Of a DNA stretch of 59,031 nt, positions 6,324 to 56,671 are shown one piece after another. The stretch's first letter is position 1. Each line of letters opens with the position of its first letter. Both the position numbers and the translations under genes were made by a program. Source of the DNA: a virus; the IMG/VR virus record IMGVR_UViG_3300016474_000052, positions 1 to 59,031 of that record; one strand, given 5' to 3'. Under the pieces are notes generated by a model, which made no database searches, was not told the DNA's origin, and saw only the letters and a list, made by a program, of their open reading frames with translations.

Positions 6324-6324
6324 C

Positions 6325-8898: not shown

Positions 8899-8901
8899 GT
8901 C

Positions 8902-20940: not shown

Positions 20941-21167
20941 CGCAGTATTACGATCCCCGGAACATCGAATGGCCTTACTGGAGTGCTTTGATTGCTGAGC
21001 AGTACGAAGCGCAACAGCTTATGTGGCCAGTCCCCGAGGATCGGTGGCAGGACTTCGCTCTGTCTATTTGCTCGATTGCGTTGTTTTCCAACTATGGCGT
21101 ACCTTCTCCAGCCGGGTTTAGCCGGTGGCAGGACTGGGCGCTTGCATTCAATAACGCGGTGAACTGA
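20937..21167 (+). CDS. hypothetical small protein
   Basis: 76-aa Trp-rich ORF with an ATGA overlap at each end. Confidence 0.55.
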
Positions 21168-24100: not shown

Positions 24101-25417
24101 GGTACAGGAACTGGGACAGGAACAGGTACGGGTACAGGCACTGGTACAGGCACCGGTACGGGAACTGGGACAGGCACAGGCACCGGAACCGGTACTGGAT
24201 CTGGAACAGGCACTGGAACAGGTACAGGTACAGGAACGAGTACAGGCACTGGCACCGGAACCGGTACAGGCACCGGTACGGGTACAGGGACCGGAACAGG
24301 CACCGGTACGGGAACAGGTACCGGAACTGGAACTGGCACTGGGACAGGCACTGGGACCGGAACTGGGACGGGTACCGGAACGGGTACGGGGACTGGGACC
24401 GGAACCGGTACTGGCACTGGGACAGGCACTGGGACCGGTACAGGTACAGGGACCGGAACAGGCACCGGAACAGGCACCGGGACAGGAACCGGAACTGGAA
24501 CTGGAACTGGGACTGGAACTGGCACCGGTACGGGAACAGGTACCGGAACCGGAACGGGTACAGGGACTGGTACAGGTACGGGAACGGGTACGGGAACAGG
24601 GACCGGAACCGGAACGGGAACAGGGACTGGGACTGGTACGGGCACAGGCACTGGAACTGGCACTGGTACAGGGACCGGAACTGGAACGGGAACAGGAACC
24701 GGAACAGGAACCGGTACGGGCACAGGAACCGGCACAGGAACCGGCACAGGAACCGGCACGGGAACAGGAGGCGGCGCTTACCAACCCTCTTATCAAACCG
24801 GATTAAGTAGCCAGTACAAAGGATTCAAGAATGTCCCATCACTTACACCCACGACTTTGGCGGCGGCTCCGATCATGAAAGAGAAAACCATCTCCAACCT
24901 CCCTGAGGGATTGGTCCAGCAACTGGTGCGCATGGGTATCAGCAAGACCCTGATCAATCAGATCGCTAAGTCAGCCAAGATTGATTTGCTTGAAAATGAG
25001 GCCCCTACGGACGTCAAAGGTGGCCTTGAGCAGATTGACGCTGACGAGCTTATGGGTGGTCAGCCCAAGACAGGTGGCCAACCGGATAAACCCGAAGAGA
25101 AGGCTATGGGCGGTCTTATGAAGATGGCTGAGACCAATGGCTTTGCAGGAACGCCAGATTCACGGAGAATGCAAGGTTATGCGGTTGGTGGTGCTGGAGG
25201 CGGTCAAGACGATCTTATTCCCGCTCTGTTGGCTGACGGTGAGTACGTTATGGACGCCGACATTGTTGCAGCGCTTGGTGATGGATCTTCGAAGGAAGGT
25301 GCCGCAAAGCTTGATAAGTTCCGCGAGGCGATCCGTAAACACAAGCGTTCAGCACCTTTGAACAAAATTCCGCCAAAGGCTAAGTCGCCTCTGGCTTACT
25401 TGAAAGAAGCGAGGTAA
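21167..25417 (+). CDS. large internal virion/ejection-type protein with giant Gly-Thr repeat
   Basis: 1416 aa, first of four consecutive large genes ending with an SLT protein. Contains a GGTPG-type tract and a 279-aa (GT)n tract. C-terminal [27 protein letters not shown] motif. Confidence 0.6.
22987..23283 (+). repeat. in-frame Gly/Thr/Pro low-complexity tract (GGTPGGGTP-type and GGLSQ(I/V)TG repeats)
   Basis: Reads ..[84 protein letters not shown]. Confidence 0.85.
23930..24766 (+). repeat. in-frame hexanucleotide (GGN-ACN) repeat encoding a 279-aa Gly-Thr dipeptide tract
   Basis: Uninterrupted TGTGTG.. from 23930 to 24766 in the 21167 frame. Only two deviations were read (GS, TST). All four Gly and all four Thr codons are interleaved. 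Confidence 0.95.
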
Positions 25418-25419
25418 TC

Positions 25420-26436
25420 ATGCCTTTCGATTGGACTCAAGGGTCAGCCCCACCGCCTGTCGATATTACGCAGTCGCAAAAGACAACAGCGCCTGAGTTC
25501 TATACCGATTATCTTAAAGAAATTGGTAAAGCAGGCGAGGGCTTTTTAGGTGCAAATGCGCCCAAGTACATCGGTGAACAAGCACTTCAGACTGAAGCCT
25601 TTGATCAAGCCAAAGGGAAATCGTTCGGCGCTCAAAATTACCTAGATCAGGCATCCCGCCTTGGCGGCTTGTCTGGTGTAACGACTGCTCAACAGCTTGA
25701 AGGCTATCAAGTAACCGACCCCACGACCGGCCAGAAGGTCACGATGGGTGGCGGTTACATGAACCCCTACATCAAAGACGTCGTTGGTGAGATTGAAAGG
25801 CTTGGCCAAAGGCAGCTACAAGAGGCTTTGCCATCCATCACTGGCGCGGCTGTAGGCTCTGGCGGCTTTGGTAGTCAAAGGGCTCTGCAGTCTGCAGGGA
25901 TTGTCGGCAGGGATGTCCTGGCGGATATTCTTGGCAAGCAGACTGGCGCCCTTGCCTCTGGTTATGACGCAGCCACCAAAGCGGCGCAGACAGATCTTGC
26001 ACGTTACCTTCAAGGTGCAGGCGTAATGGGCGGCCTGGGTCAGATTGCCTCGGGTACCAACATCGCAGAATTGCAGAATCTGGCCTCATTAGGAGCCCAG
26101 CAGCAGGCGATCGAGCAAGGCGAAGAGAACTTCCCATTGCAAACAGCACAGGCTGTCTCAGGGCTTCTGAGGGGCTATACGATGCCTACTGAAACGGCGT
26201 CGACTTACAAGGGTCCTCTGGCAGGTCTTCAATACAGTCCGTCTGGCTTACAGACCCTGGGATCTATTGCTGGCTTATTTGCGCCTACTGGCTCAAGTGG
26301 CCAGGGCATCTCTGCCGCACAAGGTCTAATCAATGCTGGCAAAGGGCTGGTCGACACACTGAAAAACATGGGGCTATTTAGCTCAGATAGCGGCCTGCCG
26401 AATACCGGGAATATTGAAGACCCGACTTGGACTTAA
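25420..26436 (+). CDS. internal virion/ejection-module protein
   Basis: 338-aa Gly/Ala/Gln-rich ORF located between the large internal proteins. No domain recognised. Confidence 0.5.
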   Translation: MPFDWTQGSAPPPVDITQSQKTTAPEFYTDYLKEIGKAGEGFLGANAPKYIGEQALQTEAFDQAKGKSFGAQNYLDQASRLGGLSGVTTAQQLEGYQVTDPTTGQKVTMGGGYMNPYIKDVVGEIERLGQRQLQEALPSITGAAVGSGGFGSQRALQSAGIVGRDVLADILGKQTGALASGYDAATKAAQTDLARYLQGAGVMGGLGQIASGTNIAELQNLASLGAQQQAIEQGEENFPLQTAQAVSGLLRGYTMPTETASTYKGPLAGLQYSPSGLQTLGSIAGLFAPTGSSGQGISAAQGLINAGKGLVDTLKNMGLFSSDSGLPNTGNIEDPTWT

Positions 26437-26448
26437 TCGGAGATAACG

Positions 26449-28203
26449 ATGGCTCTCGAAATATTGCAGGGCGAGGATGCCGAAGAGATGGGTGGCGGCA
26501 CGGGCATTACGCCCCCTTCTGGCTTTCAAATACCCGTCAATCGACAGCCTTCTCCGGGAGGGCTGGGACAGGCCGCTCCTGACGGTCTTAGTTCAGCTAA
26601 ACAGGACTACCTAAAAGCCACGCAAGACATGATCAATGCTCTCGAGCAAAGGATCAGTGGCCAGGGTTACGACATATCTCGACTGCTTTTTGCTTTTGGC
26701 CAACCTACTGCAACTGGATCGCTTGGAAGCGCTTTTGCCAATGTGGGCGCAGAAGCGACAAGGCAGCGTGGTGAGCAAGAGAAGATGATGCCCTCCATGA
26801 TGAAGATGCGGACCGAACTGGCCGCTAATCGTCTTGCTATGGCCCAACAAGAAGAGGCCGATCGTATTGCGAGTATGTACGGGGTTGGGGAGCCCGGGGC
26901 TAATGTTCAAGCCGCCCCTGGATCGGGAGCCTCTGCTGAAGCCGCGGTTGGCAACCCGCAGGCGCGTCGTGAGATGGACGTTGATCCCTTGCGTCTCTTG
27001 GCGATTACAAGGAGGCTTGGTCCCGCAGGCGAGAAGCTTTATAGCCAGATCATGCAAGCCAGAGAAGACTATCGCAAAAACTTCTTGCCTGGAGGCGAAG
27101 GTTCTTTCTATAGACCCGATACCGGTCAGCGAATCTATAACCCAGTTGAACTTGCCAAGCCGATTGAGCGTCAGTTAAACCTTGGTAACTTTAGCGGCGA
27201 GATCAAGATGCCTCTTGGCGACTGGATGAAGTACGACGAGATTATGGATAAAGGCGGTCAGACAGAGGCCGCCAAGTTCATCGTCAGCAAGATCCCAGGC
27301 CTTGGCGAAAGGATCGGGGCAATCGCTCCATCAAGGCCACTCGATTCAACACCTATAGCACCTGCTCAGCAACCTGCTATGCAGCCATCTCAAGGGGCTC
27401 CTGCGCAAGGGCCAAGATTCGAGACTGCAGGCGAAAGAGAGCAGCGCCAAAAGGCAGAGTCCAAGCAGACCGAAGAGAACATCTCGATGCTGACCGGGGA
27501 AGTCAAGGAGGCTAGAACTCCAATCCTTACCCGCTACGACAAGGCTGACTCCCTACAGCAAGAAGCCAAGCAGATGATGCAACTAGCCTCGGCGTACCCC
27601 TATGCGGTTGGCATTTTCAATAAGCCTGGAGGTCAGTACGCACTTGCGCAATTCCTCAAGGAAGGTATTCGCGTTGGCAGCACGAACGTCACCATCGGAG
27701 GCTTTGAAGATGGCATGAGACGACTCGTGAGAGCCAACCCTGAGATGGTTGCAAGGGTTGCAAAAGAACGCGGCATCTCGAACGACGAGGCTCAAAAATA
27801 CCTGCAGCAGCAAGGCTTAGATGCAGCGTCAATGCTCTTGCAGTCTGAGCGCAGACTTGACGCTCTGTTAAACAAGGCCGAGCGCAAGGGCGAGGGTCAG
27901 GTATCCAACTACGAGCGGGTCCTGTTCAGCCAGCTTTTGCCAAGCCTCTCGAATGACCCGATCAAAGCCTATCTCGCAAAGACCCTGGCCCTTCAAGAGA
28001 TGGCCAAGTTTGATAAGCAGGTTGGCGATCTCTTAAGAAAACGCTCTGAGGCTAAGCAATACGACCCAAGGCAGATGTATGACTCGGATGAGTACAAGCG
28101 TATTCGTGCGAATTACGTCAACTCCCTTGAGGGTACGATGCGTGAGTTCTTCCCTGAGACAAGGGGCAGGCTTGCCGAGGCTAGAAAAGTAGCGGGGGTC
28201 TAA
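26449..28203 (+). CDS. internal virion/ejection-module protein
   Basis: 584-aa charged, helical-looking ORF directly preceding the SLT protein. Confidence 0.5.
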   Translation: MALEILQGEDAEEMGGGTGITPPSGFQIPVNRQPSPGGLGQAAPDGLSSAKQDYLKATQDMINALEQRISGQGYDISRLLFAFGQPTATGSLGSAFANVGAEATRQRGEQEKMMPSMMKMRTELAANRLAMAQQEEADRIASMYGVGEPGANVQAAPGSGASAEAAVGNPQARREMDVDPLRLLAITRRLGPAGEKLYSQIMQAREDYRKNFLPGGEGSFYRPDTGQRIYNPVELAKPIERQLNLGNFSGEIKMPLGDWMKYDEIMDKGGQTEAAKFIVSKIPGLGERIGAIAPSRPLDSTPIAPAQQPAMQPSQGAPAQGPRFETAGEREQRQKAESKQTEENISMLTGEVKEARTPILTRYDKADSLQQEAKQMMQLASAYPYAVGIFNKPGGQYALAQFLKEGIRVGSTNVTIGGFEDGMRRLVRANPEMVARVAKERGISNDEAQKYLQQQGLDAASMLLQSERRLDALLNKAERKGEGQVSNYERVLFSQLLPSLSNDPIKAYLAKTLALQEMAKFDKQVGDLLRKRSEAKQYDPRQMYDSDEYKRIRANYVNSLEGTMREFFPETRGRLAEARKVAGV

Positions 28204-29451
28204 ATGGTCGATCTTGAAAAGCTTAACGAGTCCCAGCGACGCATAGCCGATAAGGTCATCAAGGCCGCTGAGCAAGAGGGCGTTGATCCCCAACTAGCCC
28301 TTGCCGTTGCCCAAGTCGAGTCTGGCTTCTCCCAGGCTGCAAAGAGCCCTGCCGGAGCCATTGGCGTCATGCAGCTTATGCCTGCCACCGCTAAGGGTTT
28401 AGGCGTTAATCCAAAGAAGATGGACGACAACATCCGCGGCGGGGTCATGTACCTCAAGGAAATGCTCGACTTTACTGGTGGCGATGTCCGAAAGGCTTTG
28501 GTCGGTTATAACGGCGGGCCAAAGCTTGCCAAGATGGACAACCCGCCCAACATGGATTATGCCGATCAAGTCAATTCGGTTTATCCATTTGACGCTGTTG
28601 GCCAAGCAAGAAGACTTAAGCAGCAGCTTGAAGGCGGTGCTACCGCGCAGCCAAGCCAAGAGGGCGAACCGCCCGAAAGCGAAGCAGTTGCTGAAGCAAG
28701 AAGGCTTGCTCAGCAGATCGATCAAATGCAGATCAATCAGCCCGATGATCCTGCCATTGGCCGTGCCATGTCTGCAGCCGCTGGAGCCCCTGCTGGAGCC
28801 CTTTTAAGCGGGATTGGAGCCGATGTTAAGCGTGGTATGCAGCAAAGGCGCTTTGATGCCTTCCAAGAGGCTCAGAAGGCCGCTAGGGACCAGAACCTCG
28901 CAAGGGTTGCTGACGGCATGACTTCTGGCGCAAAGTGGGGTAGCAAAGTCACAGGCTATGTAAAGCCTGGGGTCGAGACCGTCTCTGAGGCAGCTACCGA
29001 TTATCGAAGGGCTATGCCTCAAGGCAAGATCTCAGGAAGGATGGCCAAGCTTTACGGGATTCCAGGCCCTGATGAACCTGCACAGCTTTCCCAACGTCTT
29101 ATTGATCGCGCTAAGAACGCACCCGTCATGGGAGAGCCCCGCCAAGGCTTGCCTGTAGAGCGTGCAGCGCGTCCTAGCGGCAGGATGGCAGGAATGCTTA
29201 AAGGTACTGCGATGGGCGCTCTAGGCGGCGCAGGCGCAGGCTATTCGGCCTATGACGCCTATGACCGTTACATGCAGGGCGATTACCCTGGCGCAGCTTT
29301 AAGTGCGATCGGCGCCTTAGGTGGTGCTGCAAGCCTTATTCCGACACCGGTAACCCGCGGGGTTGGACTTGCAACAACTGCAGCAGTCCCAGCCTTAACC
29401 GAGCTATACGACCGCTATAGGCCTCAGCGGACGATTACGTTGCCCGAATAA
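28204..29451 (+). CDS. internal virion protein with N-terminal lytic transglycosylase (SLT) domain
   Basis: LALAVAQVESGFSQAAKSPAGAIGVMQLMPATAKGLG..GGVMYLKEM is the canonical SLT motif set with the catalytic Glu in ES. Gly/Ala-rich hydrophobic C-terminus. Confidence 0.85.
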   Translation: MVDLEKLNESQRRIADKVIKAAEQEGVDPQLALAVAQVESGFSQAAKSPAGAIGVMQLMPATAKGLGVNPKKMDDNIRGGVMYLKEMLDFTGGDVRKALVGYNGGPKLAKMDNPPNMDYADQVNSVYPFDAVGQARRLKQQLEGGATAQPSQEGEPPESEAVAEARRLAQQIDQMQINQPDDPAIGRAMSAAAGAPAGALLSGIGADVKRGMQQRRFDAFQEAQKAARDQNLARVADGMTSGAKWGSKVTGYVKPGVETVSEAATDYRRAMPQGKISGRMAKLYGIPGPDEPAQLSQRLIDRAKNAPVMGEPRQGLPVERAARPSGRMAGMLKGTAMGALGGAGAGYSAYDAYDRYMQGDYPGAALSAIGALGGAASLIPTPVTRGVGLATTAAVPALTELYDRYRPQRTITLPE

Positions 29452-43428: not shown

Positions 43429-43872
43429 ATGCCAGCAGGAAGACCGACCGACTACAAGCCCGAATATTGCGAACTGGTTATCAAGATGGGCCGCCAAGGT
43501 AAGAGCAAGGCTCAGATCGCCGCGACCATAGGGGTGACGAGAAAGACCATGTGGACTTGGTGCTCCGTCCACGAAGAATTTCTAAACGCCATAGAGTATG
43601 CAGAGGAATTAGCCCTGCAATGGTGGGAGGATATAGCCCAGGATCACCTGAAGCAGACCAAGGATGGGGTGACGCTGAACACCTCGCTCTGGTCCCGCTC
43701 GATGGCTGCAAGATTCCCTAAGGACTACACCGACCGGACAAAGCATGAAGTCACCGGCAAGGATGAAGGACCGCTCCAGGTTGACGTTGTTATGGACGTC
43801 GCACAATCACTGATCGATGAATTGACCGGCATCCGCCAGCATGCTGACAGCAAGTCAAGCAAAGCGGATTGA
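43429..43872 (+). CDS. terS: terminase small subunit
   Basis: MPAGRPTDYKPEYCELVIKMGRQGKSKAQIAATIGVTRKTMWTWCSVHEEFLNAIEYA.. is the typical HTH-type TerS N-terminus. Directly upstream of terL. Confidence 0.85.
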   Translation: MPAGRPTDYKPEYCELVIKMGRQGKSKAQIAATIGVTRKTMWTWCSVHEEFLNAIEYAEELALQWWEDIAQDHLKQTKDGVTLNTSLWSRSMAARFPKDYTDRTKHEVTGKDEGPLQVDVVMDVAQSLIDELTGIRQHADSKSSKAD

Positions 43873-45271
43873 AGCCAAGCTTGCCCTGCATCAGGAGTTG
43901 CTGAAGAAGCTACCTCCGGAGGCATCAGCAGCCTTCTACGCCAGGATGAAGTGGCTCATGAGGGCCCACTCTCACCAGATCCCGCCTAAAGGCGACTGGT
44001 GGACGATATGGCTTCTTCTTGCAGGAAGGGGCGCAGGCAAGACCAGGACGGCTGCAGAAGACGTCTGGCATACAGCCTGGACGACGCCAAACATCCGCAT
44101 CTTGATCTCGGGGCCGACCTCGGCAGACATCAGAGATACGATGATTGAGGGCGAGTCAGGGCTGCTTAACTGTATGCCCGAGGAGATCCGGGTGAAGTAC
44201 ACGAGGAGCCTGCATGAGATCGTGCTTACGAATGGCTCCCTGATCAAAGGCATACCAGCATCAGAACCCGAGCGCTTCCGGGGTCCGCAATGGCATACCG
44301 CATGGCTAGATGAACTCGCAGCCTGGGAGTATCTGGACTCAGCCTGGGACCAGATCATGTTCTCGGTCCGTTTGGGCAATAAGCCAAGAATCATAATTAC
44401 CACTACGCCTAAGCCTAAGCCCTTGATCATTGACCTGCTAGACCGGGAAGGCGAAGACGTCATCGTTACCAAGGCGTCGACCTACGACAACCTTGCCAAC
44501 CTCGCCGGGACGTTCAAGCAGCAGATCTTGCAGTACGAGGGAACCTCTTTAGGACGTCAGGAGATCCACGCTGAGATCATCGACCCCGAAGAGGCTGGGA
44601 TCATCAAGCGCAACTGGATCAAGCTCTGGCCATCAGATAAGCCCTTCCCGCGGTTTGAGTTCGTTGTGCAGTCCTATGACGGCGCCTATACCGAGAAGAC
44701 CATCAACGACCCCTCAGCTTGTAGCGTATGGGGAATCTTCAAGCCCAGCGAAGACAAAGGCTTCTGTGCCATGCTGATCGACTGCTGGGAAGAGCACCTG
44801 CAGTACCCGGACTTAAAGGAGAAGGTCATTGAAGACTTTGGCACGGTTTACGGGGACCCCAATGAATTTGGACAAGGCAAGAAGACTGACTTGGTTCTGG
44901 TTGAAGACAAGTCCTCCGGCATCTCCCTCCTGCAGGACCTGGGGCGTGCCCACATACCCTGCAGGTCATACAATCCCGGGGGCGCCGACAAAGTCCAGCG
45001 GGTCAACCTGATTGCGCCACTGATCAAGGCAGGCAAGGTCTACATCCCTGAGAGCACGAAGAACGAAGATCATCCCAGGTCTTGGGCTGAGCCGCTCGTT
45101 AACCAGCTATGCGCCTTCCCTGAAGTCAGGCATGACGACCTCGTGGATACCGTCTCTCAGGCCTTGCGAGTCCTTCGAGACATGGGCTGGCTGAATATTG
45201 ATCCACCGCCACCAGACGATGATGTTTACGCTGAAGACAGACCTAAGCGGGTGAATCCGTATGCGGCTTGA
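43841..45271 (+). CDS. terL: terminase large subunit
   Basis: Walker A LLAGRGAGKTR, Walker B AWLDELAAW, C-terminal nuclease motif HDDLVDTVSQAL. 476 aa. Confidence 0.9.
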   Translation: MLTASQAKRIEAKLALHQELLKKLPPEASAAFYARMKWLMRAHSHQIPPKGDWWTIWLLLAGRGAGKTRTAAEDVWHTAWTTPNIRILISGPTSADIRDTMIEGESGLLNCMPEEIRVKYTRSLHEIVLTNGSLIKGIPASEPERFRGPQWHTAWLDELAAWEYLDSAWDQIMFSVRLGNKPRIIITTTPKPKPLIIDLLDREGEDVIVTKASTYDNLANLAGTFKQQILQYEGTSLGRQEIHAEIIDPEEAGIIKRNWIKLWPSDKPFPRFEFVVQSYDGAYTEKTINDPSACSVWGIFKPSEDKGFCAMLIDCWEEHLQYPDLKEKVIEDFGTVYGDPNEFGQGKKTDLVLVEDKSSGISLLQDLGRAHIPCRSYNPGGADKVQRVNLIAPLIKAGKVYIPESTKNEDHPRSWAEPLVNQLCAFPEVRHDDLVDTVSQALRVLRDMGWLNIDPPPPDDDVYAEDRPKRVNPYAA

Positions 45272-45815: not shown

Positions 45816-47375
45816 ATGCCTAATCCACTTGGTGGGCTGCAAAAGGTTATGGCCAAGATGGCTGCTAACCAGAAGGTTCAGTCCGCACTCCCAAAGGCTC
45901 CGCCGCCAGCAAGCGAAATCCTTAAGCCGGATCTCATGCGTGTTTACTCTGGCCAGCGAGAGCCCATCGAAGGAAAGTTCGACATCTCAAGGGCAGATCC
46001 TCACGCCTCAATGGGTCGAGCCTTCTACACGGCAGAGCTTCCCCGGTACGCTAATAAGTTCACAGGCAATCAGCCTGGAGCTAACGTCACGCCCGTTGAT
46101 GTCGATCGCAATCGCCTGCTGATGTTCGACAGGATGTACGACACGCCTCAAGGCAAGATGGAAGGCCTCGACTACTACGACCTTCTGCGCAGGCAGGCCA
46201 TGGCCAAGCCAGGAGTCGGCAAGGACATGATCCGCAAGGAGATCCTAGACGCTGGCTTTGCAGGCACTGAGATGCCTAACGCTACTGGCAAAGCGTATGC
46301 AATTTACGACACCAGCGCAGCGCAAGACATGTCTGGCCAAGCCTTTCGAGAGGGAGGCCTTGCCATGGCCAGCGGTGGCCTTGCACGCAGAGCGGCAAAG
46401 GCAGCTTTCAAAGCCCTGCCCGGAGAAAGCTTCCAGGGTAAGACAGGCACCGACATGCCCTCAGATGTTGAGCGGCGCATCATGGAGATCAACAGGCCCA
46501 ACCTGATCCTGCCGTCCGAAGCTTTGGGTAAGCACGAAGGCAAGACGCTGATGATCACCCAGGCTGACAGGACTAAAGTAGGCGAGGGCTTTCTTGGTGG
46601 CCCAGGCTTCTCGAGCCTTCAGCTAACTGATCCACGTTATGCCGAGGCTGCATGGGGCGTTAAGACGCCTGGAGTCGCTCAGACCATTGCAGGATCTAAT
46701 CGCCGCGTACCTGAAGGCCAAGCGATCTGGACGACCATGCTCGGAACACCGACGCAGCACAAGTCAAACCAGATGGTCTTTGACCGCCTCTACAAGGAAT
46801 TCATGGGCGGTATCAAGCAAGAGAAGCTCTCGCCTGAACTCAAGGACACCCTGAACGCAAAGCTTGCCTCAGTGGTCGATAAAGAAGGCAAGAACCTATT
46901 CCCGGAAGACGTCGACATTACGAACCCCAGGAAGTTCCGCAAGCTTGTCGACACCTTCGATAAACGTGCAGCCGCTGCTGACGTCATGGGCGGTATCGGC
47001 GTTGGCGGTAAGAAGGGCCAGATCTTCGACTACGACCGGATCATTCAGCGCACGACAGACCCAGCGCTTTTAGACACCCCGACGGGTTCGCTTGGCAACC
47101 GCCTCTTCCAGTTAAGCGGCGAAGTCATGGACAGGCCTGACCTTCACCCAGCCTTCCCGACCATCCTCAAGGGCGAGGACCTCGGCGTTAACTTCACGCC
47201 CGCTCCCCGTGAATTGCTCATGGAAGACTTCATCAACAAGGTCCTTACCGAGAAGGGCAGACAGCCTGGATACATGGACTGGACTCGAGGCTATGCGCCA
47301 TCCCAGTTCCTGTCGGAAGAACTGCTTACCAAGCTTCAAAAGGCTGGTTACAAAAAAGGCGGTCGAGTCAAATGA
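45816..47375 (+). CDS. large virion-module protein; N-terminal domain paralogous to the ART-like domain of the next gene
   Basis: 519 aa. RVYSGQREPIEGKFDISRADPHASMGRAFYTAELPRYANKF aligns with AYHGSPHRFKKFDASKIGTGEGAQAYGYGLYFAENPDVAKTY in 47372..50392. C-terminus KKGGRVK. Confidence 0.5.
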   Translation: MPNPLGGLQKVMAKMAANQKVQSALPKAPPPASEILKPDLMRVYSGQREPIEGKFDISRADPHASMGRAFYTAELPRYANKFTGNQPGANVTPVDVDRNRLLMFDRMYDTPQGKMEGLDYYDLLRRQAMAKPGVGKDMIRKEILDAGFAGTEMPNATGKAYAIYDTSAAQDMSGQAFREGGLAMASGGLARRAAKAAFKALPGESFQGKTGTDMPSDVERRIMEINRPNLILPSEALGKHEGKTLMITQADRTKVGEGFLGGPGFSSLQLTDPRYAEAAWGVKTPGVAQTIAGSNRRVPEGQAIWTTMLGTPTQHKSNQMVFDRLYKEFMGGIKQEKLSPELKDTLNAKLASVVDKEGKNLFPEDVDITNPRKFRKLVDTFDKRAAAADVMGGIGVGGKKGQIFDYDRIIQRTTDPALLDTPTGSLGNRLFQLSGEVMDRPDLHPAFPTILKGEDLGVNFTPAPRELLMEDFINKVLTEKGRQPGYMDWTRGYAPSQFLSEELLTKLQKAGYKKGGRVK

Positions 47376-50300
47376 ATCCGCTGACTAAGTTCCTAGGTGT
47401 TAAAGGCCTATCCAACGGTGGAAAGTTACCACCGGGCATTAAACGCGCTACAGACCGCGCTAAGGAAAGCAAGAGCGTATTGCCTGTTGCGGGTGCCAGA
47501 CAAGCACGGCAAGCTATTCAGGGTTATCTGGGCATGGACCCCAGCTTCAGCGTCATGGACCCTGAGGCTCAGGCACTCGAGTCAGCCTACCGCGGTGGCG
47601 AGACTGCAAGTGTGCTCGGCGATCTCGTTGCAAGCCTGACGCCATTTGCCGCCGCCTCGGCCGCCGCTAAGGCCAATCAAGTTCCAGGCCTTGCGCAACT
47701 GATTGCTTACCATGGCTCACCACACAGGTTCAAGAAGTTCGACGCCAGCAAGATCGGCACGGGTGAAGGTGCCCAGGCTTATGGCTATGGGCTGTACTTT
47801 GCTGAGAATCCTGATGTAGCAAAAACATATCAGCCACGATCCCCTCAGTACGAACAAAAACTGTTAAAAAAGTACAACGCAGCAGAAGCAAGAAGAGACT
47901 ACACGACCATGGAGATCCTTGAGGATGCCATGATGCACAGGTCTCCAGAGGAAATTCTGCAACGGTATACGAATATCAGCGAAGGGTATACCCCGGCGCA
48001 TGCAAAAGCCGCCAAAGACTTTGCGAGTTGGTATGCGAAAAACTTGCCCGAGGTCGGAGGGATGTACAAGGTTGACATCCCAGATGAAAAGATTGCTCAG
48101 ATGCTTGATTGGGATAAGCCACTGAGCCAGCAGCCAGCGGCCATGCAGGTTGCAAGAAAAGTTTTCAACGACCCACAGCGGAAATCGGCTGGGTTTCCAA
48201 GCATTACAGATGAAGAGATCGGCAACTTGACTGGGCAGGATTTGTATCAGGCCATGACCACCACCAGGGGTGGTTTGCAGCCTGGCGCATCCAAATCATT
48301 GTTGCAAGAGGGTATACCTGGCATTCAGTACCTTGACCAAGCCTCCCGCGATGCAAAGCAAGGCACCCGCAATTTCGTTGTGTTCCCTGGCGAAGAGCAA
48401 AACATCAAGATGCTTGATATTGATGGTGTCCCCCAAAAGGCTGACGGTGGTCTAATCCGCATGAGCAATGGCGGCGATCGCTTCATGGGCAAGACGCCCA
48501 AGCGAGGCGTCTCTTCGCTTCCTGGTTACGGCGAAGGCGATCTCTTGAAGGACATCGAAGCCGCCTACCCAAGGGTGGCAGGAGCCATAGACACAGCGGC
48601 AACGCTTGCACCTATCTTTGGCCGCGCTCTGGTATCTCCTGCTGTCAGCGCAGGGACCTTCGTTAAGGAAGCAATCAAGAGCGGCGACCCTCGAGACACC
48701 AGCCCCTTGCAAAGGGCAAGCGAAGCCTCTGAGGAGTTCATTACAGGCGATATAAGGCCCTTCAGGACCCAGCTTGGCCCTGAGTATGCCTCGGCCACAT
48801 TAGAAGGCCTTGAGAGCGCTTTACAGGCCTCTAAGCTGCCACCAATCCTCCCGCAAGCATGGACAGCGTCGCTCATGCCTGGAGTGACAGCGGCAACAAA
48901 GCAAGCGGCAAAAACTGCCGGCAAGGAAATGCTTAGGCCGATCGACCAAGCCATGATGGGCCAGGGCCCGCTTGCTGGTGCGTTCAGTGCTGTTTCGCCC
49001 ATGAACGTCACGGCACCGGTTAGCAAGCTTGGCTTTTACAACCCGATCGAAGAGACGGCCACTACCTTGCAGCGCAAGCAAGGACCAGGGCAGGCCTTCC
49101 TCAACGAGTTCACCAAGGCAGGCATCAGCAAGCAGCGTCTCGAAGATGCAGGCCTAGCTCAGAAGCTTGCTGCCGCGCCCAACATCACGCGTGAAGAGGT
49201 CCAGGCCATGACCAAGGGCACCATGCCCGACGTCGAGGAAGTGGTCCTGAGCAGATCTGTCATACCACCCTACATGAAAGGGTTTGCCAACCTGCATATG
49301 CCAGACCTGAATGTCAATGACTACAGGCAGATCAATCAGTTGCGCAAGATTGCCGATGAGCGTTATCAAAAGGCCCTTGCGGAAAACGATTTGGACGCGG
49401 CTGAGTTTGCGATGAAGGCCGAAGAGGACATCAACAAGTTCAGCCGGACCCACAGCTATGGCACCAAGCCTGGGGAGCGGCTGACTGAATTTCACGAGTA
49501 TCAAGAGCCTGGGGGCAAGAACTACCGCGAGGTCTTGCTCAAAGTACCGGTTAAAAGGGTCAGCGAGGAAGAGGCGCGGGTAATCTTAAATGCTCGACCT
49601 GAAGATAAGCTAAGTGCTTACGACATTGACTTCGCCTCGCGTAAGGCAAATCCTGAGTTTCGATCGGCGCACTGGATGGACCCCAACGTCATATCCCATA
49701 TCAGGATGAATGACCGTGTGGACGCCGACAACAAGAACGTGCTTTTCATTGAAGAGCTTCAGTCTGACTGGGCGCAAGAAGGTCGCAAAAAAGGTTTTGG
49801 CAAGGATGTTCCGCAAGGACCTTTCGTTAAGAACACTAACGAGTGGGTTGACCTATCGCTGAAAAACATCATCAAGCGTGCAGTCGATGAGGGCTACGAC
49901 CGCGTTGCGTTCATTGACGGCTACAAGTCCTACCTGCGCTTTCCGCAAGGTGCCGATGGCGAGTCCACTGAAGCAGGGATGCGCAAGTTTTACGACGAGA
50001 TTATCCCCGGCAGGCTCAAGGCCTTGGTGGGCAAGGACAATGTCCGGACCATCCCCGGCATCACGCAACAGCGACCACTTGATGTTTCGTTGCAAGGCGA
50101 TCGGTACTACGTGGTCGACGCCGACACCGACATTGCGATACCAGATCATCCTGGATTCCGAAGCCTTGAAAGGGCCGAGCAATACCTTGACGAGTTGTAC
50201 AGCAAGTCAAAGTCCATGGACCAGATCGGCTTTGACATCACGCCTGAGATCCGTGAGAAATTCAGTGCCCCTATCCCGTATAAACGTGGAGGGGCCGTAA

Positions 50301-50392
50301 AGTCCTCCAAGAGCCGTCCCTTGAATCGAATGCAAGTTGACACCGACGCTATGCGTCTTGAAATGATGAGGAAATCATGGCGATCGAAATGA
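47372..50392 (+). CDS. polyvalent-type large virion protein with PARP/ART-like (H-Y-E class) motif block
   Basis: 1006 aa, directly upstream of the portal. YHGSPHRFKKF..GEGAQAYGYGLYFAENPDVAKTY resembles the H-G-[ST] .. G-x-G-x-Y-F-A .. Y motifs of PARP-like ARTs. Also carries a conserved-looking LFIEELQSDWAQEGRKKGF block. Confidence 0.5.
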   Translation: MNPLTKFLGVKGLSNGGKLPPGIKRATDRAKESKSVLPVAGARQARQAIQGYLGMDPSFSVMDPEAQALESAYRGGETASVLGDLVASLTPFAAASAAAKANQVPGLAQLIAYHGSPHRFKKFDASKIGTGEGAQAYGYGLYFAENPDVAKTYQPRSPQYEQKLLKKYNAAEARRDYTTMEILEDAMMHRSPEEILQRYTNISEGYTPAHAKAAKDFASWYAKNLPEVGGMYKVDIPDEKIAQMLDWDKPLSQQPAAMQVARKVFNDPQRKSAGFPSITDEEIGNLTGQDLYQAMTTTRGGLQPGASKSLLQEGIPGIQYLDQASRDAKQGTRNFVVFPGEEQNIKMLDIDGVPQKADGGLIRMSNGGDRFMGKTPKRGVSSLPGYGEGDLLKDIEAAYPRVAGAIDTAATLAPIFGRALVSPAVSAGTFVKEAIKSGDPRDTSPLQRASEASEEFITGDIRPFRTQLGPEYASATLEGLESALQASKLPPILPQAWTASLMPGVTAATKQAAKTAGKEMLRPIDQAMMGQGPLAGAFSAVSPMNVTAPVSKLGFYNPIEETATTLQRKQGPGQAFLNEFTKAGISKQRLEDAGLAQKLAAAPNITREEVQAMTKGTMPDVEEVVLSRSVIPPYMKGFANLHMPDLNVNDYRQINQLRKIADERYQKALAENDLDAAEFAMKAEEDINKFSRTHSYGTKPGERLTEFHEYQEPGGKNYREVLLKVPVKRVSEEEARVILNARPEDKLSAYDIDFASRKANPEFRSAHWMDPNVISHIRMNDRVDADNKNVLFIEELQSDWAQEGRKKGFGKDVPQGPFVKNTNEWVDLSLKNIIKRAVDEGYDRVAFIDGYKSYLRFPQGADGESTEAGMRKFYDEIIPGRLKALVGKDNVRTIPGITQQRPLDVSLQGDRYYVVDADTDIAIPDHPGFRSLERAEQYLDELYSKSKSMDQIGFDITPEIREKFSAPIPYKRGGAVKSSKSRPLNRMQVDTDAMRLEMMRKSWRSK

Positions 50393-52860
50393 ATCTGCCC
50401 CTTGAGGAAAGCCCCGAGGGCGACGAGACGATCTACAAGCTATTTGACGATAAGCCCGACGTCGAAGAACTCGAGGACGGCTCAGCGGTTGTCCGCATAT
50501 CCGAGAACGACGGCCCCGAGGAAGATCCCCAGTTCTATGAAAACCTTGCGATTAAGGTCGATCCAAACACCCTGGACGACCTTGCACTCAAGTACCTCGA
50601 GCTATTCGAAAAGGACATGCAAGCCCGTAAGGAGCGCGATAAGCAGTACGAGGAAGGCTTAAAACGTTCCGGCCTTGGTAACGAGGCTCCTGGAGGCGCA
50701 ACCTTCCAGGGCGCATCCAAGGCTGTACACCCAGTCATTGCTGAAGCCTGCGTGGACTTTGCCAGCCGGTGCATGAAAGAGATCATGCCGCCTGATGGCC
50801 CTGTAGGTACGAAAATCCTCGGCGATGTTACTGAGCAAAAGCAAGAGCTTGCTGAGCGCAAACGCGACTTCATGAACTGGCAGTGCACTGAGCAGATCGA
50901 AGAGCTTCGAGACGAACTTGAGCAGCTTGCTACTCAACTCCCGCTTGGCGGAAGTCAGTACCTAAAACTTTGGTATGACGAGCAAAAGAAGCGCCCCTGC
51001 GCTGAGTTCGTCCCTATCGACAAGATCCTGTTGCCCTTCTCGGCGCCAAGCTTTTACACCGCCCAGCGTTGTACCGAGATGCAAGACATCTCCGAGGAAG
51101 AGTTCAACCGCCGGATCGCTGCAAACCTTTACCTGGATGTAACCTTTACCCGTGCATCCATGGAGCCTGAGCCCACGGCCGCACAAAAGGCTAACGAGAA
51201 GATTGAAGGCAAGAAGTCAAGCAGCGAGAACATCGACGGAGAGCGTCGTGTCTTCCATTCTTACGTCAACCTTACGATTGATGACGACGACAAATCGAAC
51301 GGAGAACTTGCGCCTTACATTCTGATGATTGACGAGCAGTCCCGGCAGGTGGTCGGTTTGTACCGTAACTGGGAAGAAGGCGACGAGCAGATGCAAAAAC
51401 TCGACTGGCTCATCGAGTTCAAGTTCATCCCCTGGCGCGGTGCTTATGCAATCGGTCTGCCACAGTTGATTGGAGGCCTGTCTGCGGCCCTTACAGGGGC
51501 CCTGAGAGCCCTTTTGGATTCTGCCCATATCAACAACTCACCGACCATGCTCAAGCTCAAGGGAGCCCGTATAACAGGCCAGAGCGTACAGGTTGAGCCC
51601 ACCCAAGTTGCAGAGATTGAAGGCGCTCCCGGTGTCGATGACATCAAGAAGATCGCTATGCCCTTCCCGTTCAATCCGCCGTCGCCTGTGCTCTTCGAGT
51701 TGCTGGGCTGGATTACCAACGCAGCTAAGGGTGTTGTCACGACAAGCGAAGAGAAGATTGCTGACATATCCAACAACGCACCGGTTGGAACTACCCAGGC
51801 TCTGATCGAGCAGGGCGCCGCGGTCTACTCCAGCATTCACATGAGACTGCACAAGTCCATGCGCAAGATGCTGATGGTCCTCGGCAGGATCAATCGCTGG
51901 TGGCTCGAGGACATGCGCAAGGGCGACATGGTCGAGGACCTCGTCATTGGCCGTCAGGACTTTGACCGCAACACCGACATCGTCCCCATCTCTGATCCGC
52001 ATATCTTCAGCGAGACGCAACGCTTTGCCCAAAACCAAGCCCTGGCAGCACTGGCTAAGGACAATCCCGACCTATTTGATCGCCGGGAAGTCATGAAGCG
52101 GATCTTGAAGCAGATGAAGGTGCCTGAGATCAATCAGGTCCTGCCTGACGTCCGCGAAGTCAAGGAGATGAATCCTGCGCTCGAGAACGTAGCCATGTCG
52201 CTTGGGCAGCCTGTTGCAGCCTTCCCGAACCAAGACCACATAGCGCACTTGCAGACGCATTTGTCGTACGCCATGGACCCGGTCTACGGCATGAACCCGA
52301 TCATTGGCCAGAAGCTCATCCCTGCCTTGCTAGAGCACATCAAGCAGCACTTAACGCTCTGGTACCTCAAGCGCATGGACGAGTACATCAATGCCACTGA
52401 GATCAAGGATATGGACACGCTGAAGGTCGCACCGATCTTCGCAGAAGCCCAGCAATTGATGTCTGCTGTCGCCCGACATGTTCATATCGACTCGGCTGAG
52501 ACCTTTGAGCCGATGATGCCCATCTTGCAGCAACTCATGCAGATGGCCCAGCAAATGGCGCCCAAGCCTCCGGTACCGCCAGAGGTCGAGGCGCTTGTTC
52601 AAACTTCCATGGCAGAAACGCAACGCCGCGCCCAGAAGGACCAGGGCGAACTCATGCTCAAGAAGGAAAAGCAAGACACCGACGTTGCACAGAACGCCCA
52701 GAAGATCCAGGCCGACATCGCTATGAACGTCGAGGATAACCTTACCCGCCAGCAGATCGAGGCGGCAAAAATTGCCGGTGAGAACGCAGCACTCACCCAG
52801 GAGCAAGCGCGGACCGCTATGGCCGCACAAGAGGCTGCGCAACGTACCTTTGGAGCTTAA
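50377..52860 (+). CDS. portal protein (putative)
   Basis: 827 aa. Position fits: after terminase and before the GroES-like, scaffold and capsid genes. Long charged helical C-terminal region. No diagnostic motif verified. Confidence 0.55.
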   Translation: MAIEMNLPLEESPEGDETIYKLFDDKPDVEELEDGSAVVRISENDGPEEDPQFYENLAIKVDPNTLDDLALKYLELFEKDMQARKERDKQYEEGLKRSGLGNEAPGGATFQGASKAVHPVIAEACVDFASRCMKEIMPPDGPVGTKILGDVTEQKQELAERKRDFMNWQCTEQIEELRDELEQLATQLPLGGSQYLKLWYDEQKKRPCAEFVPIDKILLPFSAPSFYTAQRCTEMQDISEEEFNRRIAANLYLDVTFTRASMEPEPTAAQKANEKIEGKKSSSENIDGERRVFHSYVNLTIDDDDKSNGELAPYILMIDEQSRQVVGLYRNWEEGDEQMQKLDWLIEFKFIPWRGAYAIGLPQLIGGLSAALTGALRALLDSAHINNSPTMLKLKGARITGQSVQVEPTQVAEIEGAPGVDDIKKIAMPFPFNPPSPVLFELLGWITNAAKGVVTTSEEKIADISNNAPVGTTQALIEQGAAVYSSIHMRLHKSMRKMLMVLGRINRWWLEDMRKGDMVEDLVIGRQDFDRNTDIVPISDPHIFSETQRFAQNQALAALAKDNPDLFDRREVMKRILKQMKVPEINQVLPDVREVKEMNPALENVAMSLGQPVAAFPNQDHIAHLQTHLSYAMDPVYGMNPIIGQKLIPALLEHIKQHLTLWYLKRMDEYINATEIKDMDTLKVAPIFAEAQQLMSAVARHVHIDSAETFEPMMPILQQLMQMAQQMAPKPPVPPEVEALVQTSMAETQRRAQKDQGELMLKKEKQDTDVAQNAQKIQADIAMNVEDNLTRQQIEAAKIAGENAALTQEQARTAMAAQEAAQRTFGA

Positions 52861-53012: not shown

Positions 53013-53191
53013 ACGACTTTTCTCAGCTTATCGGGATCATCAAGGGGTTGCAGGCAGATATTGCAACCTCCTTGGCGAACGGTAATGCCAACAGTTACGA
53101 GGTCTATCAACGTCTCGTAGGTGAATACCGAGGGCTTGAACAAGCTCTGAAGGCTATCGACCAACTTTTAACGGAGAATGAGTATGACTAA
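53009..53191 (+). CDS. small hypothetical protein
   Basis: 60-aa helical ORF. Confidence 0.5.
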   Translation: MNDFSQLIGIIKGLQADIATSLANGNANSYEVYQRLVGEYRGLEQALKAIDQLLTENEYD

Positions 53192-53600
53192 CGCTTCGAA
53201 TGAAGCGGCGATTCGGGAAGCATTTCCTGAAGTCCACCCCGGTGCAGCACCCTTAGGCGCTCGATTGCTCGTGCAGATCAAGTCGCCCAAGAAGAAAACG
53301 ACGTCTTCGGGCATCGTCCTGGTCGAAGAGACCAAAGAAGTTGAGAAGTGGAACAGCCAAGTGGCTAAAGTTATTTCGGTTGGCCCTCTTGCTTTCCGTA
53401 AACGTGACTCGATGGACCCATGGCCTGAAGGCTCATGGTGCGAAATCGGCGATTTTGTCCGCGTACCCAAGTGGGGCGGGGACCGATGGGAAGTCTCGGT
53501 ACCTGGGAGCGATGAGAAGGCCCTGTTTTGCATCTTCAACGACCATGAAATCATCGCCAAGGTCACGATGGACCCCTTGACGATGCACATTTACATCTAG
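53178..53600 (+). CDS. GroES/Cpn10-like co-chaperonin homologue
   Basis: PLGARLLVQIKSPKKKTTSSGIVLVEE..VAKVISVGP..CEIGDFVRVPKWGG..ALFCIFNDHEIIAKV follows the GroES pattern (PLxDRVLV..K(T/S)xGGIVLP..GxVxAVGxG..VGDxV...Y.G..........DILA.V). Confidence 0.6.
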   Translation: MSMTNASNEAAIREAFPEVHPGAAPLGARLLVQIKSPKKKTTSSGIVLVEETKEVEKWNSQVAKVISVGPLAFRKRDSMDPWPEGSWCEIGDFVRVPKWGGDRWEVSVPGSDEKALFCIFNDHEIIAKVTMDPLTMHIYI

Positions 53601-55756: not shown

Positions 55757-56671
55757 ATGGCAGCCCCGATGCGCAGTACCGACTTTCGGTCGATTGTCGA
55801 ACCGATCCTTAACGAATCGTTCGACGGTATTTATGATCAGAGAGCCGATGAATGGTCTACCGTTTTCCGTGAGCAAAATGGTATTCCCCGCAACTACCAC
55901 GAAGAGCCGGTCCTTTATGGTTTCGGCGCAGCCCCTGAAATGCCTGACGGCACTCCCGTCACCTATCAGCAGGGCGGCGTACTCTTCCTCAAGCGCTATG
56001 TGTACAAGGTCTATGGCTTGGCCTTCGCACTGACCAAAGTGCTCGTGGAAGACGGCGACCATATCCGGATTGGTCAGGTCTATGCTAAGCACCTCGCACA
56101 GTCTCTCGTCGAGACCAAAGAGACCTTGGCAGCTAACGTGCTCAACCGTGCCTTTACCGCAGGCTACAACGGTGGCGACGGCGTTCCCTTGAATGCCAAC
56201 AACCACCCGATCGTTAACGGCACCTTCAGCAACCTGCTTACGACCGCTGCGAACCTTTCGCAAACGTCGCTCGAGCAGATGCTCATCCAGATCCGTCAGG
56301 CTGTTGACAACAACGGCAAGAAGATCCGTTTGAACCCGCTGAAGTTGGTTGTTGCTCCTGGCAACACCTTCCAGGCTGAAGTTCTGCTCAAGAGCGTTCT
56401 GCGTGCTGGTACCGCAAACAACGACATCAACCCGATCAAATCGATTGGCTTGCTATCCGAGGGCGCTTCGGTTATCAGCCGTTTGACCTCGCCTACCGCA
56501 TGGTGGGTGCAGACCGACGCACCGGAAGGCATGAAGCTGATGATGCGCCGTGCCCTTGAAAAGACCATGGAAGGTGACTTCGAAACCGACTCCATGCGTT
56601 ACAAGGCCACCGAGCGTTATGACATCGGCTGGACCGACCCGCGTGCCATGTACGGTACTCCTGGCGTCTAA
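55757..56671 (+). CDS. major capsid protein (HK97-fold, lambda E / Mu gpT-like size class)
   Basis: 304 aa. Position fits, followed by a strong hairpin. The N-terminal ..FRSIVEPILNESFDGIYDQ..EW..VF.. and ..YGLAFALTKVLVEDGDH.. patterns resemble capsid families. Confidence 0.7.
   Translation: MAAPMRSTDFRSIVEPILNESFDGIYDQRADEWSTVFREQNGIPRNYHEEPVLYGFGAAPEMPDGTPVTYQQGGVLFLKRYVYKVYGLAFALTKVLVEDGDHIRIGQVYAKHLAQSLVETKETLAANVLNRAFTAGYNGGDGVPLNANNHPIVNGTFSNLLTTAANLSQTSLEQMLIQIRQAVDNNGKKIRLNPLKLVVAPGNTFQAEVLLKSVLRAGTANNDINPIKSIGLLSEGASVISRLTSPTAWWVQTDAPEGMKLMMRRALEKTMEGDFETDSMRYKATERYDIGWTDPRAMYGTPGV

Follow-up and report, generated by a model that had tools for sequence, protein, structure and literature searches.

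Polyvalent proteins are an already described class of proteins in phages and conjugative elements, as are their ADP-ribosyltransferase (ART) domains, their late-gene context, and their predicted packaging in the head (PMC5512222, PMC9503650). Head packaging and injection of such ARTs was predicted by Iyer et al. in 2017 (PMC5512222) and again in a 2022 survey of NAD+ and ADP-ribose (ADPr) in viruses (PMC9503650). The ART-PolyVal family (PF18760) corresponds to the N4-ART / Tox-ART-HYD2 clade, and its prototype is the ART domain of the virion RNA polymerase of Roseovarius Plymouth podovirus 1. Iyer et al. describe its signature as a His in strand 1, a Tyr in strand 2, and an Asp in strand 5 (H-Y-D). 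Here we describe a protein of 1006 amino acids (aa) that is encoded at nucleotides (nt) 47372-50392, on the plus strand, of the viral record IMGVR_UViG_3300016474_000052. (By "the window" we mean the entire stretch of DNA that we analyzed, which is 59,031 nt long.) On balance we think that this protein is a multi-domain effector that is packaged in the head of the phage and delivered into the host by injection; our confidence in any specific chemistry is much lower. Its ART-like domain is a divergent member of the family, and this domain and a second conserved domain, which we will call the C-module, recur in many other phage proteins.

The open reading frame (ORF) at 47372-50392 begins with ATG. 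A first-pass annotation, made from the DNA alone, had reported this 1006-aa ORF and quoted two peptide blocks from it, and all three are present. The two blocks lie well outside of what chance would produce, as the profile statistics below show. A public contig carries an independent call of an identical protein (P0001; we number the homologs P0001-P0495). That contig is 123,607 bp, or about twice as long as the 57-62 kb genomes of the closest portal relatives, and may be a concatemeric assembly. Aligning 240 homologs to the protein with BLAST gave this domain map:

47372-47686, plus strand: N-terminal module, rich in Ala and Gly (aa 1-105)
47687-48427, plus strand: ART-PolyVal-family domain (aa 106-352), as assigned from conservation, AlphaFold2 (AF2), Foldseek, Pfam, and hhalign
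48437-48457, plus strand: junction peptide K-A-D-G-G-L-I (aa 356-362), immediately following the ART domain
48467-49006, plus strand: middle module, rich in Ala, Gly, and Pro (aa 366-545), from homolog mapping
49007-49942, plus strand: C-module (aa 546-857, with its core at 705-857)
49943-50389, plus strand: C-terminal tail (aa 858-1006), which holds a junction peptide and a terminal peptide

The ART-like domain is present in nearly all of the 120 best homologs. The N-terminal module is conserved in roughly 20-40 of them, where it is mostly N-terminal as well but is sometimes found elsewhere. The middle module forms the N-terminus of other proteins (P0057, P0064, P0067, P0074, P0080, and P0082), which suggests that our gene is a fusion of two units. 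(We also considered aa 1-110 and aa 355-546 as an internal repeat and rejected it; the BLASTP E value is 0.94.) Among the relatives, the ART domain and the C-module are found in either order, and their partners include RadC-JAB, PcfJ-like, LPD23, SLT, glucosaminidase, lysozyme, InPase, GP88, ParB, and phosphatase domains. As far as these alignments go, this is the variable order and partnership that defines polyvalent proteins (Iyer et al. 2017, PMC5512222), and the first-pass annotation was right to call the protein polyvalent. The PHROG matches (at aa 102-182, 227-347, and 535-611) are uninformative, being short stretches of families without a name or of very long "endolysin" profiles. NCBIfam gave no match for this protein, for the product of the 519-aa ORF upstream of it, or for the portal protein.

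The first block that had been quoted, AYHGSPHRFKKFDASKIGTGEGAQAYGYGLYFAENPDVAKTY, was placed at 47705-47835. Its start is correct, but it spans aa 112-153, or nt 47705-47830, so the end was 5 nt too far. The block had been likened to the ART-PolyVal, DUF3990, and PARP group, and Pfam, hhalign, and Foldseek all agree. In the full-length protein, Pfam's ART-PolyVal model matches with E = 4.7e-5 (24.6 bits) and DUF3990 with E = 1e-3, and these matches cover only aa 110-177. If the two helical inserts of the domain (see below) are removed, then the remaining core scores 28.6 bits, and the match, to positions 7-66 of 140 only, still ends at position 66 of the profile. However, the prototype also matches this model at just positions 5-70 of 140, so a partial match is no evidence against membership in the family. 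Relatives do score above the gathering cut-off of 31.2 bits (the best E value is 2.1e-11), and many have a precomputed hit to PF18760. We also compared 35 insert-free cores from across the family to Pfam. ART-PolyVal matched all 35 (best E = 2.1e-11), DUF3990 matched 33, PARP matched 10 (best E = 8e-5), and RES matched 6 (best E = 0.0086), and no unrelated family had a comparable score. The PARP model does not match our protein, and in the 10 relatives it matches the Y-F-A region only.

To cover the rest of the domain, we have a profile-profile comparison and a predicted structure. We built a canonical profile from 42 full-length ART-PolyVal copies in giant relatives. (One of these copies, P0361, matches the Pfam model from position 1 to position 140 of 140, with 179 bits.) Using hhalign, the insert-free core of the subfamily aligned to the canonical profile with a probability of 98.6% (E = 7.8e-16) over 116 columns, including the C-terminal half. 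The AF2 model of aa 100-375, from 35 sequences, has a pLDDT of 88 and a pTM of 0.77. It has strands at aa 109-116, 141-144, 230-237, 317-321, 333-337, and 346-350, interrupted by two long helical inserts. When we compared this model to PDB with Foldseek, the top 28 or so matches were all from the ART superfamily, each of them weak: exotoxin A and PE-like toxins, cholix toxin, diphtheria toxin, RES-Xre, and NatT. Searches of PDB sequences gave only weak matches to PARP, tankyrase, exotoxin-like proteins, and cholix (E = 0.04-3), along with matches to gp41 coiled coils, which we consider to be spurious. Judging from the profiles and the predicted fold, aa 106-352 is a true but divergent member of the ART-PolyVal family.

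In this domain, strand 1 carries H114-G-S. It is followed by the loop G-T-G-E132-G-A-Q, by strand 2 with G-x-G-x-Y142-F-A-E, and by Y153. Near the C-terminal end of the domain are G-I-P316-G-I-x-Y320-L-D322-x-x-S325-R326 and then T-R-N334-F-V-V-F. The helical inserts, at aa ~155-228 and ~255-310, are not found in the canonical copies. H114, at the end of the predicted strand at aa 109-116, is found in 124 of 127 copies of the subfamily; Y142, within the predicted strand at aa 141-144, in 126 of 127; Y153 in 125 of 127; and N334 in all 125. More broadly, H114, Y142, Y153, Y232, Y320, D322, S325, R326, and N334 are kept in 120-126 of about 126 copies, and within the subfamily E132, Y232, Y320, D322, S325, R326, and N334 are invariant or nearly so.

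The first-pass annotation assigned the domain to the H-Y-E class, and this part does not hold: the catalytic Glu is absent, and the Asp of the family itself aligns with Pro316. Across the canonical copies, one acid alone is conserved in the C-terminal half, namely the Asp of G-y-D-G (41 of 42 copies), and in the profile-profile alignment this column pairs with P316. In 126 copies from the subfamily, the P316 column has Pro (104 copies), Lys (8), His (4), or Asp (2). Neither of the candidate strand starts, P316 and N334, has a conserved Glu or Asp in the subfamily. (Pairing N-F-V-V-F by eye with E-Y-I-V-Y would make N334 the equivalent of Glu988 of PARP1; we replaced this with the profile-profile mapping, which puts N334 on the next strand.) In these alignments, then, the subfamily is without the third residue of H-Y-E and also without that of the family's H-Y-D, and the residue pattern points to a site that is preserved but rewired. 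PARPs of the H-Y-I/L/Y type are listed as mono-ADP-ribosyltransferases despite having no Glu (table in PMC7955679). The ART-like domain may transfer ADP-ribose without an acid, it may break down NAD+, or it may only bind a ligand. The RES model (PF08808) gives 13.4-14.4 bits for our protein, as compared to a cut-off of 23.2, and matches the C-terminal half only; strand 1 has a His, not the Arg of the RES signature (Arg-Glu-Ser). The pattern S-x8-N-[FY]-V-V-F-P seems to resemble the C-terminal motif of RES.

The C-module has its own set of invariant or nearly invariant residues: P-G-G-x-N717-Y-R-E720, H767, H776-x-R778-x-x-D781-R782, E794-E795-x-Q-S-D799-W, W825, K831, Y842-D843, and R856. Its most conserved part is HWMDPNVISHIRMNDRVDADNKNVLFIEELQSDWAQEGRKKGF (aa 767-809, nt 49670-49798), which is the second of the quoted blocks and was correctly placed at about 49660-49800. 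E795, Q797, S798, and D799 are invariant in 73 aligned copies. The block had been linked to polyvalent proteins, and this is also correct, but it lies outside of every LPD model in Pfam. Because a charged and polar pattern of invariant residues is typical of enzymes, the C-module is probably a second enzyme.

This module is widespread. An exhaustive profile search of 1.84 billion representative proteins identified 14,747 clusters at E ≤ 1e-3, of which 9,372 were at E ≤ 1e-30. Matching proteins range up to 7,058 aa in length, and in several there are multiple matching stretches (up to 7). Pfam reported nothing at E ≤ 1 for the C-module of our protein, nothing meaningful (and no GNAT match) at E ≤ 0.1 for 20 members of the family, and nothing over the C-module in five giant relatives. 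Similarly, PHROG had no match in aa 612-1006, and a profile search of PDB sequences found nothing relevant. In the AF2 model of the C-module (pLDDT 81), the top Foldseek matches in PDB all have the GNAT fold; the best is SSAT, with E = 4e-3, a probability of 0.98, and target-normalized TM-scores of 0.36-0.38. Against a viral library, Foldseek found 26 large proteins from uncultured phages at E ≤ 1e-3, and several of these are named for LPD, ART-PolyVal-like, RadC, or lysozyme domains. The first matches outside of the family were N-acyltransferases or GNATs (E = 0.015-0.08). From the model, we tentatively describe the fold as GNAT-like. The C-module may be among the LPD domains described by Iyer et al. 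for which Pfam has no model.

The gene lies between the terminase and the portal, as the first-pass annotation had it. The order in the window is TerL, cargo, portal, and then, downstream, the major capsid gene:

43841-45271, plus strand: large terminase, TerL (Terminase_6N/6C)
45816-47375, plus strand: upstream 519-aa ORF, between TerL and the 1006-aa gene, belonging to the same cargo array
47372-50392, plus strand: gene for the 1006-aa polyvalent cargo protein (ORF call; identical public protein)
50377-52860, plus strand: portal protein (phrog_1216, E = 1e-18)
55757-56671, downstream of the portal: major capsid gene

The ATG of the 1006-aa gene overlaps the stop codon of the 519-aa ORF (ATGA), and its 3' end overlaps the start of the portal gene by 16 nt. 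A position in the head module, beside the portal, is conserved in four other lineages. In L003, the homolog P0002 is just upstream of a portal that is 97% identical to the window's portal. In L004, the order is TerS, methylase, TerL, an SU10-type portal, and cargo. In L005/L006, a protein with the C-module and InPase is two small genes downstream of the portal. And in Sulfitobacter phage phiGT1, the order is TerS, TerL, portal, gp4, gp5, gp6, scaffold, capsid. The portal in the window is 27.5% identical to the SU10-type portals of L004 and L005, and 49% identical to the portal of Caulobacter phage RW. Phage RW lacks the cargo gene; between its TerL and its portal there is just a tRNA. In MW202545 (L009), with a portal that is 57% identical, the slot is taken by an unrelated protein of 890 aa (6227-8899), with no detectable similarity to either cargo gene. 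Since the cassette is missing from phage RW and is replaced by an unrelated protein in MW202545, it is accessory, and the TerL-portal interval appears to act as a hot spot for the exchange of cargo.

The protein gp5 of phage phiGT1 (QLB38217.1) falls into this ART subfamily too (E = 6.5e-67) and shares its signature. Mass spectrometry of purified virions detected gp5 with 12 spectra and an SC/MW of 0.29 (PMC10386132, Table S3). According to the authors, contaminants were found only below an SC/MW of 0.2; the values for tubeA and tubeB were 0.39 and 0.15 (PMC10386132, Table S3). Their paper does not mention ADP-ribosylation (PMC10386132). Virion mass spectrometry had been suggested as a check in the first-pass annotation; these data give a positive result for a homolog of the same subfamily, but they do not cover the two-domain protein from the window. 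From the position of its gene and from this homolog, we infer that the window protein would be packaged as well. Furthermore, peptidoglycan-cutting domains are fused to these modules in relatives, and such fusions fit with ejection across the cell envelope.

The 519-aa ORF that precedes our gene has no match in Pfam, PHROG, or PDB sequences either. Its domain (aa ~234-519) is found in at least 120 proteins, and several of these also have ART-PolyVal, PcfJ, LPD23, or SLT domains. A single polypeptide has it directly downstream of the same ART domain in P0034 and in P0044, so the two overlapping genes are one cargo array that is split into two ORFs. The rest of the protein (aa 1-230) is covered by only 7-17 of 120 homologs. 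(We rejected a degenerate ART block here, at 45816-46500 in the window, with VYSGQ..KFDIS..GRAFYTAE..RYANKF, as it scored just 1.9-3.3 bits against the ART profiles.) The protein ends with G-Y-K-K-G-G-R-V-K, which has a G-G-x-V peptide like the one at the junction after the ART domain. The copies in the two cargo genes are:

47349-47369: G-G-x-V peptide at the end of the 519-aa ORF
48437-48457: G-G-x-V-type junction peptide after the ART domain
50279-50299: Y-K-R-G-G-A-V, in the tail of the 1006-aa protein

Across the homologs P0001-P0495, the pattern [F/Y/K/M/A]-x-x-G-G-x-[V/I/L/M] is enriched 8-fold (395 occurrences, versus 49 ± 6.5 in shuffled sequences). It lies at a median of 17 aa past the last ART strand (N-[FY]-V-V-F), and it is in the last 45 residues of 236 of the 495 proteins, where about 32 would be expected. 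P0241 is 99.6% identical to the 519-aa protein over its entire length up to "GYKKGG" and then continues for 251 more residues, again ending in KKKGGRVK. Therefore, a whole module was gained or lost exactly at the junction peptide. Among the virion proteins of the window, only the products of the two cargo genes have clear C-terminal copies, and the unrelated 890-aa protein of MW202545 has three G-G-x-V peptides (KAKGGQV, KAEGGNV, and YAEGGGV). The peptide [Y/K]-[A/K]-x-G-G-x-V, or more broadly [Y/K/M/F]-[A/K]-x-G-G-x-[V/I], marks the ends of modules and C-termini, and it may be a signal for packaging (incorporation) or processing. We found no mention of it in the literature that we searched, including Iyer et al. 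2017. The 1006-aa protein also has a terminal peptide, DTDAMRLEMMRKSWRSK (aa 990-1006, nt 50339-50389), which is identical in P0121, P0123, P0125, and P0240 despite differing sequence before it. A looser pattern, D-[AT]-M-[RL]-L-[EAQ], is within the last 30 residues in 31 of its 47 occurrences.

We propose that 45816-47375 and 47372-50392 form an accessory two-gene polyvalent cassette in a tailed phage's late operon for the head. Its 1006-aa protein would be made late in infection, become part of the head close to the portal, and leave for the host together with the DNA on ejection, and its two globular domains would act on host molecules early in infection. The first domain (aa 106-352) keeps His114, Tyr142, and Tyr153 of the putative NAD+ site and has Pro316 at the position of the catalytic Asp. 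If it is active, it would most likely be a mono-ADP-ribosyltransferase that does without the acid, as the H-Y-[I/L/Y] PARPs do, or else it would use a rewired site formed by E132, D322, S325, R326, and N334. The second domain (aa 546-857) would be another probable enzyme, tentatively GNAT-like. The G-G-x-V peptides at the ends of the units may signal incorporation or processing.

Several results weigh against this proposal. The first-pass annotation had suggested looking for an ART fold with profiles or structures. The full-family hhalign comparison did find one, but our protein by itself scores below Pfam's cut-off for ART-PolyVal (24.6-28.6 bits versus 31.2), the Foldseek hits are weak, and neither the ART domain nor the C-module has a Foldseek match in PDB at E ≤ 1e-3. 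With P316 in place of the canonical catalytic Asp, the transfer of ADP-ribosyl groups is not assured. Pfam identified no MuF domain, no metallopeptidase, and no other known domain for anchoring in or processing of the head. In the literature, we found no experimental work on the activity of any ART-PolyVal domain or on this protein. And phiGT1 gp5, which comes from another phage lineage, has a single domain and just 35% identity over the ART region; finding it in virions is not proof of injection.

We also considered that the ART-like domain might be catalytically dead, and that the protein is a minor structural component of the head or of the ejection apparatus (a plug, a channel, or a component associated with the DNA end) which uses the fold for binding or as a scaffold. 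This would account for the change from Asp to Pro in 104 of 126 copies, with the Asp kept in 2; for why the gene is always in the head module; for the virion level of the phiGT1 homolog, which is similar to that of low-copy structural proteins; and for the long segments rich in Ala, Gly, and Pro (aa 1-105 and 366-545), which are typical of internal virion proteins. However, the near-invariant His and Tyr residues, along with E132, D322, S325, R326, and N334, are a better fit to an active site than to a scaffold. Since the closest cultured relative lacks the cassette, the particle can be built without it. The extensive shuffling of domains is typical of effectors, and the PARPs discussed above are listed as mono-ADP-ribosyltransferases without the Glu (PMC7955679). 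We consider a dead domain to be unlikely. Less likely still is that the domain consumes or cleaves NAD+, or a signal derived from NAD+, as a RES-type NADase or phosphorylase would, and that the injected protein counters defenses or shuts off the host without modifying any protein. The canonical transferase acid is lost; there is a faint RES signal, at positions 89-138 of 157 of the Pfam model (E = 0.04-0.08 in our protein, besides the 6 of 35 relatives, with their best E of 0.0086); and the RES-Xre toxins have the highest target-normalized TM-scores (0.46-0.48). But all of the RES signals are below threshold (13.4 bits versus 23.2), strand 1 carries the H-Y clade's His where RES has an Arg, and the best-supported kinship is with ART-PolyVal, which is a family without known activity.

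It would also be conceivable that the protein is not packaged at all and has a late cytoplasmic role in assembly or lysis, so that its adjacency to the portal is incidental. For the window protein itself there is no direct evidence of packaging, nor was MuF or another recognized head-targeting domain found. Yet the same-subfamily homolog is in virions, four lineages conserve the portal-side location, relatives carry fusions to cell-wall-cutting domains that would be useful only on entry, and the prototype of the family is inside an N4-type RNA polymerase that is packaged in the virion. We consider this scenario to be highly improbable. Returning to the packaged and injected effector, a bolder version is possible but doubtful: that the widespread insert-bearing subfamily has swapped the catalytic Asp for a new invariant site (E132, Y320, D322, S325, R326, and N334) and may have a chemistry other than classical protein ADP-ribosylation, such as a RES-like breakdown of NAD+ or the modification of nucleic acids; that the C-module is an abundant, unmodeled family of enzymes with a GNAT-like fold and an active site unlike that of GNATs; and that the G-G-x-V peptide is a general signal for head targeting or cleavage, as well as the point where modules are gained or lost.

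Because the proteins encoded in the upstream part of the window include tail-fibre, baseplate, and lytic-transglycosylase proteins, the virus is a tailed phage. There is no terminator-like site on the plus strand between 43377 and 54000, promoter-like sites are no more frequent than expected by chance, and there is no tRNA gene in the window. The GC content of the cassette (0.54-0.57) is the same as that of the neighboring genes, so we rejected a signal of horizontal transfer. The head module also contains a gene for a GroES/Cpn10-like protein of 140 aa (53178-53600), which is 96% identical to a gene in L003 that is annotated as Cpn10; genes annotated as "co-chaperonin GroES" are syntenic in Caulobacter phage RW and MW202545. 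Farther upstream is a run of large genes (21167-25417, 25420-26436, 26449-28203, and 28204-29451). The first three products (1416, 338, and 584 aa) have no PHROG match. The last product (415 aa) has a lytic transglycosylase domain and matches PHROG family 342 ("internal virion protein with endolysin domain", E = 1.6e-17). This run may encode the ejection proteins of the phage. Finally, Caulobacter phage RW (L008, 2445-5247) has two ORFs annotated as "large terminase subunit" with a SAM-dependent methyltransferase gene between them; TerL of the window is uninterrupted.

Among phage proteins, injected enzymes from the head act earliest in the infected cell. They are candidates for taking over the host or for blocking NAD+-based defenses. 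The class was predicted computationally in 2017, and we found no report that tests the activity of its most common enzymatic domain. What our analysis adds, relative to the literature that we searched, is the loss of the Asp in a large insert-bearing subfamily, the size of the unmodeled C-module family, the terminal and junction peptides, and the link to a protein that was detected in virions. With a large subfamily lacking the presumed catalytic residue, the annotation "ADP-ribosyltransferase" may be wrong or incomplete. The C-module accounts for over 14,000 sequence clusters without a database model. Because phiGT1 gp5 ties the predicted class to a virion-detected protein, it leads to a system that can be cultured. 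The terminal peptide may explain how cargo is loaded, and if so, it could be used to load foreign proteins into phage heads.

How does this protein compare to known systems? Like other ART-PolyVal proteins, it has homology across the whole core, a His in strand 1, an aromatic residue in strand 2, and a Tyr downstream of these, and it is a multi-domain phage protein whose gene is among those for late virion proteins. The canonical copies, at ~120-140 aa, are compact and have the Asp of G-y-D-G, while the window's subfamily has two helical inserts (of ~75 and ~55 aa) and a Pro at the position of the Asp. The subfamily also has features of its own: the PARP-like strand G-x-G-x-Y-F-A-E, the loop G-T-G-E-G-A-Q, and the invariant Y-L-D-x-x-S-R and N-F-V-V-F. 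As compared to PARPs of the H-Y-E type and to the diphtheria and exotoxin A toxins, H-G-S, G-x-G-x-Y-F-A, and the second Tyr align and the fold matches are to toxins, but there is no catalytic Glu and the similarity is weak (E = 0.04-3 for PDB profiles and E ≥ 0.1 for Foldseek). Phage phiGT1 gp5 shares the ART subfamily, the signature P-G-I-K-Y-x-D-x-x-S-R and T-R-N-F-V-V-F, and a place in the head module, between the portal and the scaffold. It differs in having 387 aa and a single globular domain with no C-module, it comes from a P22-like podovirus lineage, and it is annotated as "hypothetical protein".

The C-module resembles GNAT acyltransferases in that its top Foldseek matches have the GNAT fold, and Iyer et al. 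2017 (PMC5512222) report some polyvalent proteins in which a GNAT neighbors the ART domain. Unlike GNATs, none of the 20 members has a Pfam GNAT match, the TM-scores are only 0.36-0.38, the Q/R-x-x-G-x-G/A loop for CoA is not evident by eye, and the invariant His, Arg, Asp, and Glu residues are an atypical set. The proposed logic of an enzyme that is packed in the head and injected with the DNA is shared with T4 Alt and with fusions of MuF to effectors, and the first-pass annotation had drawn this parallel. At the level of domains it breaks down: Alt is in the R-S-E clade and our protein has the H-Y configuration instead of a T4 Alt-type domain, and there is no match to MuF (PF04233) in Pfam or PHROG. 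A further parallel is to the polyvalent proteins of Iyer et al. 2017, which similarly have several unrelated globular domains in variable order and with variable partners, are encoded beside virion genes, and are predicted to be delivered with the DNA. Unlike those proteins, ours has no zincin-like metallopeptidase (MPTase), the proposed hub for processing, that Pfam can identify; the array in the window is split into two overlapping genes, and a G-G-x-V peptide is found at the ends of its modules.

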